The notes: generated by a model not told the origin, from the letters alone. Positions 22,349-28,403 are shown, numbered from the stretch's first letter. The stretch: 64,000 nucleotides of DNA from an uncultured Hormoscilla sp. (GCA_963921275.4 OZ001293.3:160001-224000); one strand, 5' to 3'. Made by a program: numbers and translations.

Positions 22349-22559
22349 TATCCCTCATAGCCTAGGTAAAGGCATGTCAGTCAGCGATGCCTGAGGGGTT
22401 GCCTGCGTTGCATCCCGAAGGCCTCGAAGGTCAGCCGCGATGAATTTATCGTAGTCCTGCGGAGTCCAACCGTTCCAGGGAAGCCAAAATTAAACTTATT
22501 CTACCAACTTGCTTGAGTCGAGCGCTCTCACGCGGGGGAGAAAGTCCCCATAGAAAAAG

Positions 22560-22880
22560 TTAAACGGACAAGCTTCCTTGCCAGTGCGATCGCAGGGACT
22601 TTACCTGTTCGGATTCGCGGCGCGGCGGCGGCAAATCTTCGCCGCCTTCGCAAAAGGGATGGCATTTGCCCAGCCGCCGCAATGTCAGCCACAACGCCAG
22701 CGGCGACGGATGCGAACGAAAAACCGCTTTGGCGTATTCCGAACAAGTCGGCGAAAAACGGCAAGCGCCGCCCAGCCACGGCGACAATAAATATTGATAC
22801 GCCGCCAGCAGCCATCACGCCATGCGCCGCACGAGGGCATCGGCCTGTTGCGCAAATAATTTAAAAAATTTAATTAGCAT
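22560..22880 (-). pseudogene. yidD: Membrane protein insertion efficiency factor, in-frame TGA at 22815-22817; foreign origin
   Basis: MLIKFFKLF...RRMA*WLLAAYQYLLSPWLGGACRFSPTCSEY...RRLGKCHPFCEGGEDLPP. Confidence 0.85.
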
Positions 22881-23036
22881 GTATTTGATGGGTAATCCGC
22901 ACTTTTTGAATATTTGAATTTTACCCTGTTTGCCAAATTTTTGCGAATAACAAAAAATGCGGCAAATACAAATTATTTGTAATAAATTACTTGTCCGCTC
23001 AGAATATTTTTCCTGTTTTATGCTATACTTTTCCAT

Positions 23037-23651
23037 ATGGAACACTCAAAATTAACCGCGATTTTATCCCAAAAAGGATATTGTCATCTTGCGGCGCAAT
23101 CAGCCGGGCAGGTTCATGCTCTAATTGACGCTCTGGGCAGAGTTTTCTTTACCACCGATGTAAAGGTTGTGCCCAACAGCAAAGCATTGGTAACTTCCGC
23201 CCGGGCATTGGATGTGCATACCGACCACCATCGGGCGCATTGGATACTGTGGCATTGCCTGGAACAAACGGACATCGGCGGGGAGAGCGTTCTGGTGGAT
23301 GCCATTCAAGCGTATCGGACGCTCGCCCCCGCCGACCAGAAGATGCTTTCGCAGGTTATACTGCTGGAGCATAAAATTTTTGACAAAGGCATGGATTTCT
23401 GCCCGCTGTTGTGGAAAGATAATGGGGCACTGAAGTTCTATTATTCTTTCTGGCTGGCAAAGAAAGACATGCCGCAGGATCAGAAAACGGCTTTTGACGC
23501 TTTCCGAAAAGCCGTGGATGCCCAAGAACGGACCATAATCAAGCTGGGCCAAGGGGATGTGCTTATTGTCGCAAACCATAGAATTCTACATGGAAGACGG
23601 GCAATAGAAGGACACCAAAAACGGCTGCTGAAAAGATATTGGATAGAATAA
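23037..23651 (+). CDS. TauD/TfdA-like Fe(II)/2-oxoglutarate oxygenase
   Basis: HTD motif, GGESVLVD, GDVLIVANHRILHGR, RLLKRYWI. Confidence 0.8.
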   Translation: MEHSKLTAILSQKGYCHLAAQSAGQVHALIDALGRVFFTTDVKVVPNSKALVTSARALDVHTDHHRAHWILWHCLEQTDIGGESVLVDAIQAYRTLAPADQKMLSQVILLEHKIFDKGMDFCPLLWKDNGALKFYYSFWLAKKDMPQDQKTAFDAFRKAVDAQERTIIKLGQGDVLIVANHRILHGRRAIEGHQKRLLKRYWIE

Positions 23652-23771
23652 CCGGGAAATTTTTCCCTAACCGCCGCTTGGCGGCGGAAACCCCGCGCCT
23701 TAAAACTCATCAATACCGCCAAATCCCAAAAACATTTGTTAAAAGTTAAAATTTTTAGTAGAATGAAATCT

Positions 23772-23967
23772 CATTTTTGACACACATGGAGGACTAACCA
23801 TGACAACAACTCTTGTACTGCCGGAATCGCTCACCGGTGATCGCGTGGATTTTCTGCAAGCCAAGGGCATTTTTGATACACATGGAGGACTAACCATGAC
23901 AACAACTCTTGTACTGCCGGAATCGCTCACCGGTGATCGCGTGGATTTTCTGCAAGCCAAGGGCATT
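23772..23967 (+). repeat. 96-bp tandem duplication covering the RBS and first ~24 codons of the next gene
   Basis: CATTTTTGA(C/T)ACACATGGAGGACTAACCATGACAAC... at 23772 and 23868. Confidence 0.95.
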
Positions 23968-24401
23968 GACGAAGACATTGCTCGCGTCGATTTGGAGATG
24001 GTCAAAATGAAACTGGCCGAACCCGAAGAAGGCGCGGGCTGGAATGCTGAGCAAACCAACGATGCCGAAATCGAATACAAACGGTATTTGACGCTCTGCC
24101 GAAAATACCCGTACCCCAAGTATTCCATCGTGCCCAACAAAATTATGGACACCATGTGGCACTACCACATTCTGGATACGCGGGCCTATGTTAAAGATTC
24201 GGAAGCAATCTTGGCGGTTATTTTCACCATTTCCCGTACTTTGGCATGCGCGGCAAAGACGATGAGGAGCAGCTCAAATCGTCTTTTGAAAAGACCAAGC
24301 AATTGTACGAGTCTCTATTCGGCGAACCGATGGCACGGGAAGGTGAAAGTAACTGCTGGCATGATTGCGAAGATCGATGCTGGCATGCGTGCTCGGACTA
24401 A
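23800..24401 (+). CDS. DUF1399/glycine-rich-domain-like protein with CWHDCEDRCWHACSD tail; one-base frameshift at ~24211
   Basis: EYKRYLTL, VPNKIMDTMWHYHILDTRAY; restoring one T gives FGGYFHHFPYFG...YESLFGEP...NCWHDCEDRCWHACSD*. Confidence 0.7.
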
Positions 24402-24454
24402 ATAAAAATGCGGCGCATTTTTATTTAAATTTTCCCGTATTGACATCCCGCCGA

Positions 24455-24560
24455 TTATTGCCGCCGCCACTGCGTTGCGCTGGCGGCATCTTCCAGCACA
24501 ATGCCGGCATCGGCCAATTGTTTGCGAATAGAATCGGCGGCGGCAAAATCGCGCCGCACC
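24455..24560 (-). pseudogene. cysS: 3' fragment of a foreign cysteinyl-tRNA synthetase
   Basis: RRDFAAADSIRKQLADAGIVLEDAASATQWRRQ* matches the CysS C-terminus. Confidence 0.75.
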
Positions 24561-24802
24561 GCATCTCTATTCTCAAACTCAAACATACTTATACTCAAGA
24601 GGTTTTCAATTGACAAGCAATCTGTTCTTTTTTGTAGTCGTAGGCAGATTTTCAAACCCAAATCAATTCGCAGAGAACAATGTTATTGATTAAACAATAT
24701 TCTCCATCAGCAACCATTTTTTCTATGAATTGGGATGCTTTTTCACTCGGGGTCATCCTGTACTAAATAGCGTACCAGAACATTAGTATCTATTCCTTTC
24801 AT
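24556..24802 (-). pseudogene. VapC PIN toxin, broken and truncated at the foreign island
   Basis: MKGIDTNVLVRYLVQDDP...NNIVLCELIWV*...FEFENRDAVR. Confidence 0.75.
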
Positions 24803-25047
24803 TGCAGTTTTTCGCATACCCGTTGTTTTACTGCCGCATTCATCGCTTCTATGGAGATGGATTCCATGCCCTCGCGGTGTAGTATTCCTTTGAGAGACTG
24901 CACCTGGATCTTGGCCGGTTGGACTATCACCCGCCCGTCCGAGTCAATGATGAAGTCAATGGTATCTCGGGGGTTGAGTTTGAGGAAGTCTATGATCTCT
25001 CTGGGCACAGTAGTTTGCCCTGACTCAGCGATCGTAGCAATTGGCAT
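24799..25047 (-). CDS. AbrB/MazE-family antitoxin
   Basis: ATIAESGQTTVPREIIDFLKLNPRDTIDF; ATGA overlap with vapC. Confidence 0.85.
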   Translation of the reverse strand: MPIATIAESGQTTVPREIIDFLKLNPRDTIDFIIDSDGRVIVQPAKIQVQSLKGILHREGMESISIEAMNAAVKQRVCEKLQ

Positions 25048-25402: not shown

Positions 25403-25798
25403 TCAATTAAGTTTGGCAATCAATTGTTCTACTCGTTCCTTAATTTCATCCCGAACCCGGTGAAAGGTTTCCATCGGTTGCCCGTCGGGGTCGTCTAATT
25501 GCCAATCTTCAAAGATTTCTCGCATCACCCAAGCTTCTGGCAAGTTGACGCCGCAGCCACACAGAGAAATTACGGCATCGTACTCTTCCGGGTTAAAATC
25601 AGTTAATGGCTTAGAAGTCTGGTCGCTGATATCAATTTCAATTTCATCCATGACTTGAATGGCTGTAGGATGAACTCTGCTGGCTTCTAGTCCGGAACTG
25701 GTAACGGCAATTTGGCCCGTTCCTAGCTGACGAGCAAATCCTTCTGCCATCTGAGAACGACAGCTGTTTCTCTTGCAAACAAACATGACTTTTTTCAT
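25403..25798 (-). CDS. arsC: Arsenate reductase (LMW-PTP fold)
   Basis: VCKRNSCRSQMAEG, SLCGCG, DDPDG. Confidence 0.92.
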   Translation of the reverse strand: MKKVMFVCKRNSCRSQMAEGFARQLGTGQIAVTSSGLEASRVHPTAIQVMDEIEIDISDQTSKPLTDFNPEEYDAVISLCGCGVNLPEAWVMREIFEDWQLDDPDGQPMETFHRVRDEIKERVEQLIAKLN

Positions 25799-25818
25799 TT
25801 TTGTCTTCCATTAAACAA

Positions 25819-26535
25819 TTATTTTATATCCCGAAATCCATGGGAAAGTTGCCCATAGAATATCACTGCTAATTGGGCTCCTAAAATGGGGGCTACCCAA
25901 TAAACCCAATGATGCTGCCAAATGCTCGCAACTACGGCGGGACCGAGCGATCGGGCTGGGTTCATGCTGGCTCCGGTAATTGGCCCCATACAGGTGGCTT
26001 CTAATCCGACTGTTAGCCCGATCGCTATCCCGGCAAAACCATTCGGAGAGCGGCGATCGAGCCCACTTCCTAAGATAACAAACATCAGGATAAAGGTGAG
26101 AATTGTTTCCAGGACTAATGCTTGCCACCAGTTCCCATTTAATGGTTGGGTGGCGCCCAGATCGGCTACGGCACCTAGGGTGAGCAGCAGTAAGGCCGAA
26201 GCGGCGATCGCTCCTAGGCATTGAGCCAAGATATAGGGTAGTACCTTGCGGGTGGGAAAAAAGCCACTTGACCAGAGACCTAGGGTTACAGCTGGGTTAA
26301 TATGCGCTCCGCTGATGTGCCCTGTGGTATAAATTAAAGCGGCTACCACTGCCCCAAACACGAAGCTGATGCCCAGATGAGTCAAGGCTCCATCTGCTAT
26401 CTGATTTACCATCACAGCACCCGTGCCCACAAACACTAAAACGAAAGTGTCTATGGCCTCTACCACTGCCTCTTGCCAGCAATGGGAAACCGCGTTCCAC
26501 AGATTCTTTTTAATTCCCTGTTTTTTCCCGATCAC
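25819..26535 (-). CDS. MIP-family aquaglyceroporin (probable arsenite channel)
   Basis: SGAHINPAV and GASMNPARS motifs; adjacent to arsC. Confidence 0.88.
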   Translation of the reverse strand: MIGKKQGIKKNLWNAVSHCWQEAVVEAIDTFVLVFVGTGAVMVNQIADGALTHLGISFVFGAVVAALIYTTGHISGAHINPAVTLGLWSSGFFPTRKVLPYILAQCLGAIAASALLLLTLGAVADLGATQPLNGNWWQALVLETILTFILMFVILGSGLDRRSPNGFAGIAIGLTVGLEATCMGPITGASMNPARSLGPAVVASIWQHHWVYWVAPILGAQLAVIFYGQLSHGFRDIK

Positions 26536-26654
26536 GATGTTATTCTTTCCCTGTCAATGAACAGCAAATTATACCATTTGAATTTAATCATGATACAGTT
26601 AGTAGCAACACCTCAATTATCTCATAACCCTGTTGCCGATCCCCCCCAACCGGT

Positions 26655-26706
26655 AGCAGGGAGCAGGGAGCAGGGAGCAGGGAGCAGGGAGCAAGGAGCA
26701 GGGAGC
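26655..26706. repeat. AGCAGGG heptamer tandem repeat (~7 copies)
   Basis: Direct reading. Confidence 0.85.
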
Positions 26707-26799
26707 TTTGAGAAATGTTAAGAAATATGTGAGTAAGGCATAGCTTATTAAGGGGGGTTTGGGGGGATCTTAACTGTTTCATCGCCAATAAAATTTGTA

Positions 26800-27100
26800 T
26801 TATCTACTTAAAACTCTGCTTGTTTTTTCAACACTTCTCCAATGGTCAGGTCTGACATGGCTGCGCCACGCTACGCGATCTGACTTGCCCCCATATACTG
26901 TTCACCTTCACTTGATAAAAATTATGGTAGAGCAAGTTATAACTGCGTGTGAAGAAAGGCACGTAGCGACATCATTTACTACTCCCGGTGCGTTTTTCAT
27001 GTAAAAATCCACGAAATCTACTATCGCTGGGTTGTTCTGAGCAACTTCGGCATTGATGTAGATAGACAGTGGGCGGGCCAGGGATTGATAAGTACCCCGG
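26800..27100 (-). pseudogene. C-terminal remnant of a PstS-like phosphate-binding protein
   Basis: GTYQSLARPLSIYINAEVAQNNPAIVDFVDFYMKNAPGVVNDV, then decays. Confidence 0.6.
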
Positions 27101-27212
27101 CTGCAAGACCCAGAAACCAGGTATATGGGAAAAACCTGGTTTCTTAATTCAAACCACCTTATCGCTTTTATTCCTCGAATAAAGGCGATCGCCCTCTAAT
27201 CTTCAGCGATCT

Positions 27213-28403
27213 TTAACAACAGCTGCTTTCTGGCCCACAGCAATCACTTGCATCCTTATTCACCCGATAATTCATTCCTTTAGTTTCCCGGGGGTGGCGG
27301 ATGCTGGGGCGAGAACAATCAAATACTCCCGCCTTTTCTAAAGGAATCTCTACATAGGGTTCTACGGGCAAGAAATCGCCATTATATGGATCATTAGGGT
27401 TAGTCAAGATGTGGAAAGTCTTGTCACAAACTGCTGTCCGCTTGCCCCGCTCGTAAGTATGTCCGTCATCATCCAACACCTGTTTCCAAGGTCCAGTATA
27501 AATCACTGCCTGATTCCGTTCCCAGCAAGGACCATCCTTCCCCTTAAAAGCTTGCACCGTCACAGAACGAAATTAAATTCCGTCAATCACTTGCCAAGGT
27601 TCCGACTGGCGGCTGAGAATTTCCATCCCATAAAAACCCGCTTGTGCAAACATTTCCACAAACGCATCTTCCCGGAAAGCACCCGCAATACAGCTACTCC
27701 ACAGTTGCGGGTCATTGATAATTTCCGCAGTCGGGTCTTCATCGCAGACAATATCAGAAATCACGGCCCGTCCACCCCGTTTCAGGACGCGATATATTTC
27801 GGCAAACAGCTGTTTTTTATCTTGGGGACGCACCAAATTTAACACGCAATTAGAAACTACCACGTCAACGCTATTATCTGCGATCAGGGGCTGTTCTTGC
27901 CGCAGCCGATCGCATTCGGCCTCAAGCTTGGCCACATCTTCGATCGAAGTAATCGGATGTTCGGACAACCACCGTTGTACCGCCTCTAAATCCAAAGCCA
28001 AGTCTTGAATTTTTCCCTTGAAAAACCGCACATTATGGTATCCAATCTGTTTGGCAATATTATCTTGATATTTCTTGGCCAAGGTCAGCATTTCATCATT
28101 GAAATCAACCCCGATCGCCTTGCCCTGCGGACCCACTTTCTGAGCTAAAATATAGCAAATCTTGCCCGAACCAGAACCCAAATCCACCACCGTTTCGCCT
28201 GGCTTGACGTAGCGACTGGGGTCGCCACAACCATAATCTTTCTCAATGATTTCTGCTGGCAGGATATCCAGATATTCGCTCTCGTATTTAGTAGGGCAAC
28301 ACAGACCATCCTCTACCTGACGCGCACCTGCTTGGTAACGCTCTAACACAGTGCTTTCGATATCATAGGCAGTTGTTGGCATTTCAGTCAAACTTTCCAT
28401 CAT
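27213..28403 (-). pseudogene. arsM: Arsenite methyltransferase-like protein, in-frame TAA at 27573-27575
   Basis: LCCP, DYGCGDP, VDLGSGSG, SNCVLNL, CIAGA, AVCDKT, C-terminal CC; both ORFs are in the same frame. Confidence 0.75.

Follow-up and report, generated by a model that had tools for sequence, protein, structure and literature searches.

Two co-oriented genes at positions 23037..24401 of a 64,000-nucleotide (nt) stretch of DNA from an uncultured Hormoscilla sp. (GCA_963921275.4 OZ001293.3:160001-224000; this whole stretch is the window) make up a functional unit: a shortened Fe(II)/2-oxoglutarate (2OG) oxygenase of the TauD/TfdA family, followed by a protein of the GRDP-like group (formerly DUF1399) that ends in CWHDC-EDR-CWHAC. 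The genome that holds the window measures 7.03 Mb in 7 contigs. An earlier note on this DNA had proposed a TauD oxygenase gene next to a co-oriented DUF1399-like gene, and Pfam matches, open reading frames (ORFs) and motifs agree with that description. In our classification the module joins an oxygenase to a protein or peptide partner of its own, and the local copy is a broken, imported member. The partner's family is catalogued as PF27765, 'UCP032817-like', without an assigned function.

The case for a unit comes from relatives of the second gene. A search with its N-terminal piece returned 232 proteins at E ≤ 0.001, mostly about 169 amino acids (aa) long and most with a precomputed PF27765 annotation; PF27765 homologues share 60-91% identity with the window protein. 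A genome scan found at least 557 relatives, and the best 80 loci were kept, a sample that favours close relatives. Among the named strains that contribute a locus are Marivirga sericea DSM 4125, Winogradskyella sediminis DSM 28134 and Raineya orbicola SPSPC-11. A homologue of the window oxygenase (32-53% identity) is present at 51 of these 80 loci, and the CWHDC tail occurs at all 51 loci with the mini-oxygenase compared with one of the 29 without it; only about 1 kb of upstream sequence is available at that lone locus (L021). The oxygenase gene lies directly upstream on the same strand in 49 of the 51, downstream in one and on the opposite strand in one. The two proteins are also found joined: 44 of 110 longer homologues carry PF02668 (the TauD profile) and PF27765 in a single chain of 385-428 aa, always in the order oxygenase-linker-partner-tail. 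On the tree, these fusions correspond to 5 changes by parsimony, at least 2 of which are forced by well-supported branches.

Oxygenase-linked forms and a small oxygenase-free subclade together make up one clade (support 97). Members of the subclade (L054, L055, L058 and L059) keep all four Cys, with W-H-D replaced by K-R-A (tails such as CKRACPSYCKRAC); this counts as one evolutionary event and not as a statistic. A search of five genomes with other tail types found no mini-oxygenase orthologue and gave a single weak hit of 24.5 bits. As far as these alignments reach, only W-H-D tails accompany the mini-oxygenase. Neighbour clustering within 6 kb revealed no third gene conserved across the 80 loci: the next cluster after the pair's own was present at 7 of them, its listed representative being an ORF that runs antisense to the partner gene. 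The earlier note had looked to co-occurrence with radical S-adenosylmethionine (SAM), peptidase or transporter genes. No such gene is conserved beside the pair at the 80 loci, and a secreted RiPP (ribosomally made, post-translationally modified peptide) is therefore unlikely.

The oxygenase ORF (23037..23651, + strand) encodes 204 aa and is apparently intact. It matches PF02668 with an E value of 6.9e-18 and 65.9 bits, above the cut-off of 27, and this match is confined to profile positions 81-267 of 267: the N-terminal part of the family (sheet and lid) is absent, making this a shortened form. An HTD motif (H61, D63), H185 and R196 correspond to the HxD...H iron triad and the 2OG-binding Arg. 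H61, T62, D63, H185, R187, R196 and R200 are invariant in an alignment of 28 oxygenase orthologues, and the triad and Arg are likewise invariant in the 44 fusions. The catalytic residues of the mini-oxygenase are, by alignment, retained. Among solved structures, gamma-butyrobetaine dioxygenase (E 2.9e-13) and TmpA are closest in sequence, and TmpA (E 1.9e-13), BBOX1, CarC, AsnO and clavaminate synthase are closest in fold. The protein scores below every NCBIfam equivalog cut-off, including those of TmpA (54.7 bits versus 400) and gamma-butyrobetaine dioxygenase (49.8 versus 414.75).

The second gene is read in two frames. It starts MTTTLVLPESL... and runs ...MWHYHILDTRAYVKDSEAI up to 24210, giving a PF27765/GRDP-like first part of 105 codons (23896..24210, + strand) that ends ...WHYHILDTRAYVKDSEAI; the second part, which opens GGYFHHFPYFG..., lies in the other frame as GGYFHHFPYFGMRG...ESNCWHDCEDRCWHACSD from 24213 (24213..24401, + strand, including the stop codon at 24399-24401). 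The first piece alone matches PF07173 weakly (E 0.001, 20.2 bits, under the cut-off of 22.7). Both PF27765 signature motifs, WHxHILDT and HHxPYFG, are found across the window's two pieces, and the assignment to PF27765 is based on these motifs and on the precomputed annotation of homologues. When the two pieces are aligned end to end with intact homologues of 169 aa (best P0001, 91% identical), they abut exactly, and the homologues read I/V-F-G-G-Y across the join in one frame. The earlier note's suggestion that one T restored at about 24211 would join the gene is thus upheld, by these alignments and by strains that carry the T.

Logan contigs were used to compare strains at this site (24210..24212, + strand), where the window has TT and near-identical strains have one T more. 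Runs X1 and X3 represent organism A (0.96 of sampled words), probably the source strain; their contigs, assembled separately at depths of 30 and 41, lack the T as the window does. X5 and X6 stem from two other studies (95-99% alike), and their contigs contain, behind 24210, an additional T that restores the frame. Because X1 and X3 lack the T while the near-identical X5 and X6 carry it, the break is probably a real and recent inactivating mutation. Loss of this one T takes the HHFPYFG motif and the tail out of frame, so the module is probably inactive in this genome, where its second gene most likely became a pseudogene recently. A different explanation, in which the break is an artefact of sequencing or assembly or else a programmed ribosomal frameshift, can point to its position in a short T run and to the extra T of near-identical strains. 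We nevertheless consider it very improbable: both organism A runs lack the T in independent assemblies, the run at the break is only 2-3 T long, the site (ATC TTG GCG) does not read as a slippery heptamer, and relatives encode the partner protein in a single frame.

Decay may also be reaching the oxygenase gene itself in relatives. Run X5 has a 1-nt deletion at 23462 inside this gene (depth 6.5), and at a Prochloron locus (L010:5344-5925) the oxygenase match contains a stop codon and is split into ORFs of 85 and 119 aa.

The start of the second gene lies in a 96-nt tandem duplication (23772-23867 / 23868-23963) with one mismatch, in frame, a feature absent from the earlier note. Each copy within 23772..23963 (+ strand) has a Shine-Dalgarno sequence, an ATG and the first 22 codons, and the gene has two possible starts, at 23800 (32 residues more) or 23896. 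Judged from the contigs, the duplication is real: in X3 the repeat unitig has double depth (80 versus 38-41) and a 66-nt junction unitig spans 23842-23907, while X5 and X6 have the junction bridged by a 90-nt contig (23842-23931), and at least one of these two strains has lost 3 nt from the first copy. The contig of X1 jumps over 96 nt here, which we read as a collapsed repeat. Since X5 and X6 carry the duplication with an intact frame, it appears to be older than the break, and intact alleles exist.

The intact protein P0001 was modelled from 30 sequences as an all-helical domain (mean predicted local distance difference test score, pLDDT, 83.7; predicted template modelling score, pTM, 0.82). 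Domain residues reach pLDDT 84-98 and tail residues 156-169 fall under 50; in this model the tail is a low-confidence appendage on a confidently modelled domain. E58, E60, D85, W88, H89, H91, D94 and D101 are invariant in 30 partner sequences, as are H111, H112, P114, Y115, G117, D123, E144 and the four Cys. The tail of the window gene (24354..24392, + strand) has its four Cys at a spacing of 4, and its two CWHxC units double as a 15-nt DNA repeat (24354-24368 / 24378-24392, 87% identical). The repeated CWHxC tail, also claimed in the earlier note, recurs across phyla: C-x3-C-x3-C-x3-C lies within 15 residues of the C-terminus in 109 of the 120 best near-length homologues, and the other 11 are mostly truncated or frameshifted. 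Among the 109 tails, W stands at position 2 in 100, H at 3 in 93, D at 4 in 102 and R at 8 in 90, and where W is lost, H usually turns to R. The flexible tail has this Cys ladder in the form C-W-H-D-C-x-x-R-C-W-H/N-A/E-C.

Searches with the partner gave few leads. The Protein Data Bank held nothing for its sequence profile (best E 2.9), and fold searches with the model yielded no relative (Foldseek best E 1.5; VIA-align best Z 3.8 among 48161 chains), an absence that does not prove a new fold. Pfam gave no HD match and the fold searches no HD-domain entry; a BURP domain was likewise found neither by Pfam profile nor by fold. NCBIfam has no family for the partner or for multi-copy members, PADLOC, which covers known anti-phage defence proteins, assigned 0 families to 8 proteins, and PHROGs returned one weak hit (E 0.0099).

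The reading we favour, and to which we give slightly less than an even chance, is that the oxygenase modifies the partner's tail. The mini TauD-family enzyme would act on the partner protein, hydroxylating or otherwise oxidizing a tail residue. In its favour stand the linkage of oxygenase and CWHDC tail, the invariant catalytic residues, a tail modelled with low confidence yet conserved across phyla, and the variable Cys tails that this domain bears throughout the family. The conserved Asp would be the first candidate, because peptide Asp hydroxylases such as SmaO offer an analogy, followed by Trp or His; SmaO is an Fe/2OG hydroxylase acting on Asp in peptides (PMC12186529). We would expect the product, a modified Cys/His-rich peptide end, to remain on a cytoplasmic protein, since the sequence shows no evident signal peptide and no protease or exporter gene is conserved nearby. 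This end would then bind metal or carry out redox chemistry, and would not be a secreted peptide.

Several observations weigh against tail modification. The nearest solved relatives of the oxygenase (TmpA, BBOX, CarC, AsnO and clavaminate synthase) all use small molecules. When a natural fusion was modelled, neither its domains nor its tail were confidently positioned (pTM 0.55; tail pLDDT 62, 51 and 47 in successive blocks). Tail residues other than Cys are not strictly kept in the 44 fusions, in which D is changed to S or N in 2, W-H to K-R in 2 and to G-H in 1, and H to N in 1. The 80 loci share no conserved protease or exporter gene within 6 kb. Subfamilies without the oxygenase also keep the His motifs of the partner domain; the domain therefore has a function of its own, which tail modification leaves unexplained. 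Finally, modification of the tail is something we infer, and its chemistry is predicted from sequence. A complex prediction for oxygenase and partner gave no answer (score 0.00) and speaks neither for nor against binding.

The small-molecule substrates of its relatives suggest another role for the oxygenase. In a two-enzyme cascade, it would hydroxylate a small metabolite akin to, say, a betaine or a phosphonate, the helical, His/Asp-rich partner would process the product as a second metalloenzyme, and the Cys tail would be accessory; TmpA/TmpB, PhnY/PhnZ and SmaO/SmaX would be the precedents. Such a role would suit an oxygenase for which TmpA and gamma-butyrobetaine dioxygenase head both the family and the structure matches, and a partner with invariant E58, E60, D85, H89, H91, D94, D101, H111, H112, D123 and E144. 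Pairs of a hydroxylase and a helical Fe-enzyme, sometimes fused, are on record (PMC12186529). We still judge the cascade unlikely, since the NCBIfam matches are far under their cut-offs (TmpA, as above), most family members stand without a hydroxylase and bear hypervariable or repeated Cys tails that would be unexpected in a metabolic enzyme, and the oxygenase tracks the tail type (51 of 51 loci versus 1 of 29).

The Cys ladder itself raises the possibility of a metal or redox helper, in which Cys, with His and Trp, would bind a metal or an Fe-S cluster or serve as thiol reductant, and no covalent modification would take place. Such a partner might supply the oxygenase with Fe(II), rescue it, or act as a buffer for a thiophilic metal. 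The four Cys, invariant at a spacing of 4, would fit this role, as would the 1:1 fusions, which suit a dedicated helper, and the many family tails in which Cys, Lys, Ser and Gly abound (CKAPKCRTQCKPMKCK is one), which resemble metallothioneins. One Atlas cluster also carries the automatic name '4Fe-4S ferredoxin-type', a label only. However, one-Cys units of about 10-14 residues with variable spacers, as in the AAWCSIEQP repeats of the wider family, are unlike metal sites; it is the W-H-D residues, and not the Cys, that track the presence of the oxygenase; and a helper role names no substrate for that enzyme. We think it improbable that the partner is only a helper.

The tails look different again when the whole family is considered. 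When 1.84 billion representatives were searched with a profile, 8030 clusters (at 50% identity) matched with E ≤ 0.001; of these, 2498 reached 1e-10 and 413 reached 1e-30. We took a census of tails in 140 of the best 150 representatives, namely those with the WHxH motif: at least two Cys follow the domain in 120 of the 140, at least three in 109 and none in 15. Multi-copy, core-like repeats are present in 19 of the 140, and only 3 of the 140 are of the CWH type. Examples of repeats, with spacers of variable length, include (AAYCSVAKPAYCSVAVTGEK)n, (AAWCSIEQP..)n, (AMCAVA..)n and (AMKCPQACPNPG)n, and a cyanobacterium of the window's own family carries (SDCGAHF)x4. Tails are thus hypervariable across the family on a conserved domain, yet conserved inside the CWH subfamily. 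From these sequences, the wider family does look like precursors with C-terminal cores, some of them multi-copy. The two-gene precursor and modifier module proposed in the earlier note is sustained in part: linkage (51 of 51 loci, 44 fusions) and family-wide core-like tails agree with it, and no gene for release is conserved nearby.

Most family members stand alone, with no hydroxylase, and the His motifs are conserved in subfamilies without the oxygenase as well. Because these motifs are kept in all subfamilies, the domain is more than a passive leader. One could therefore imagine the PF27765 His-motif domain as a self-acting, metal-dependent peptide-modifying domain with its own Cys-centred cores, in single or many copies, a bacterial counterpart of BURP cyclases to which the CWHDC subfamily would have added the mini-oxygenase, yielding a hydroxylated or Cys-Trp/His cross-linked, metal- or redox-active end. 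We regard this as a long shot. If true, it would define a large unrecognized class of ribosomal peptide or protein-derived cofactor chemistry, spanning the 8030 clusters.

Other features of the family were noted in passing. In 48 of the 140 representatives, a conserved RPx[LFVI] motif follows the Cys region, a few residues short of the C-terminus (for example, ...NTSLRPRLALAA); the CWHDC subfamily lacks it. Beside 7 members with few or no tail Cys, a search for a Cys-rich mini-gene of its own turned up no convincing candidate. At 62 of 80 loci in Burkholderiales, multi-copy members of the AAWCS/AAYCS type (L093-L172, for example L093:3563-7825) have as neighbour a protein of roughly 1000 aa (cluster median 1002), in most cases immediately upstream and co-oriented. 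The single neighbour that was scanned is a CHASE-PAS-GGDEF-EAL protein, and these 80 loci have neither a modifying enzyme nor a protease or exporter conserved within 7 kb of the multi-copy gene. The repeat protein and its CHASE-PAS-GGDEF-EAL neighbour may be a peptide signal and its receptor. Oxygenase-free loci L059, L068, L072, L074, L077, L080 and L081 adjoin Cas9, WYL/WCX, SMODS, HNH, type III restriction, TIR and DUF4145 genes (variable islands), and L080 has a different TauD gene downstream; the family matches no PADLOC model. Proteins P0168-P0173 are 455-524 aa long, two of them named by NCBI as coming from cyanobacterial metagenome-assembled genomes; in P0168, a second, more degenerate copy of the His-motif domain is followed by a hydrophobic stretch and a Gly/Cys-rich end (for example, CGGGGCGGCGGG).

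Horizontal transfer probably brought the two-gene block into the Hormoscilla genome, which has one copy of the partner gene. None of four same-genus genomes has a match, and matches in other relatives do not exceed 43% identity. A tree built from 117 domain sequences puts the window-like P0001 in a group (support 95) with Alphaproteobacteria, sponge-associated Gammaproteobacteria, Prochloron and Leptospirales, and a Pseudanabaena copy is nested inside Bacteroidota. The block is flanked by fragments of two housekeeping genes whose GC contents, 0.59 and 0.60, compare with 0.47 for the window. To the left, at 22528..22840 (- strand, GC 0.59), is a second copy of yidD (Pfam YidD, E 9.2e-17), a pseudogene fragment with an internal TGA; a search of the genome against itself placed the match at 22635-22826 with 1 internal TGA and found a full yidD elsewhere (109.6 bits). 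To the right, at 24455..24560 (- strand, GC 0.60), is a 3'-end remnant of cysS of about 30 last codons (Pfam CysS_C, E 1e-4, 22.8 bits, just under the cut-off of 23), and the full cysS is again elsewhere, in a 577-aa frame. Together, these flanks look like the scar of an imported DNA fragment. Composition does not set the cassette itself apart (GC 0.49-0.50 versus 0.47 for the window), and the yidD and cysS fragments had no match in the 80 related loci.

The remaining features concern sequences between and around the genes. An AT-rich region (22841..23036, + strand, GC 0.30) precedes the oxygenase gene and contains a promoter-like site at 22930-22958; a second promoter-like site (23736..23764, + strand) lies in the intergenic space before the second gene. 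Both are consensus matches only. No shared motif was apparent by eye in the 140 nt 5' of the oxygenase across 48 loci. Among Bacteroidota loci L026, L031, L033, L040 and L048, about 60 nt just 5' of the oxygenase start are conserved (...AAAACGTTATAGCCAATGGTATGACGACAG...), and this stretch could be a promoter or leader element. A perfect 14-nt palindrome that overlaps the stop codon of the second gene (24399..24427, + strand) is a possible terminator hairpin, with a fold energy of -12.9 kcal/mol that is not significant (z-score -1.1); X6 has 25 nt deleted at this palindrome. Further downstream are an ORF for a PrlF/MazE-like antitoxin (24799-25047, Pfam) and, at 25403-28403 (- strand), ORFs that resemble, by eye only, an ArsC-type phosphatase, a MIP channel and a SAM methyltransferase; together they may be an arsenic cluster.

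The pair is present in at least seven named bacterial groups, is often fused, and has neither a paper that we found nor a solved fold relative. It offers a testable entry to a very large family in which a conserved His-motif domain carries variable Cys peptides, and the outcome could be new post-translational chemistry, a metal-handling device or a metabolic enzyme pair. Within the Hormoscilla genome itself the result is more modest: probably an imported module, disabled only recently. The earlier note had offered the system as a candidate undescribed one, which holds in that no paper on the family was found and fails in that the family is already in Pfam as PF27765.

The closest known relatives of the partner are PF27765 (UCP032817-like) and PF07173 (GRDP-like, formerly DUF1399), which have the motifs WHxHILDT and HHxPYFG in common with the window and no known function. 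Our literature search found nothing on the bacterial PF27765/UCP032817/GRDP-like family, the DUF1399/GRDP papers recovered being concerned with plants, fungi and Hydra; a search with the accessions PF07173, PF27765, IPR009836 and PIRSF032817 found only a soybean genome-wide association study. To our knowledge, plant GRDP proteins have neither Cys tails nor a TauD partner. With TauD/TfdA hydroxylases such as TmpA and gamma-butyrobetaine dioxygenase, the window oxygenase shares the double-stranded beta-helix fold, the HxD...H triad and the 2OG Arg; unlike them, it is 204 aa long, lacks the N-terminal part and is always paired or fused with a Cys-tailed protein.

Among RiPP systems, CinX is a further Fe/2OG hydroxylase that acts in tailoring. 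The SmaO/SmaX system (PMC12186529) resembles the pair in using an Fe/2OG enzyme on Asp of a genetically encoded peptide and in having partner enzymes that are sometimes fused. It differs in that the pair here is without a short GG-leader precursor, an ATP-grasp enzyme and a PCAT exporter, and its 'precursor' is a conserved, confidently modelled 150-aa domain. Plant BURP-domain cyclases (burpitides; PMC12186524) combine a conserved His-rich domain with C-terminal, often repeated cores, as does the PF27765 family. Unlike them, the PF27765 family is bacterial and cytoplasmic and has Cys-centred cores; no sequence or fold relation was found between the two, and autocatalysis is hypothetical here. 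The long-leader RiPP precursors of the NHLP and Nif11 types have a large conserved N-terminal part and a hypervariable C-terminal core, and sit beside maturases and GG-cleaving exporters. The PF27765 family is like them in joining a conserved part to a variable core; unlike them, most of its members stand alone, and their putative metal-ligand motifs are conserved.

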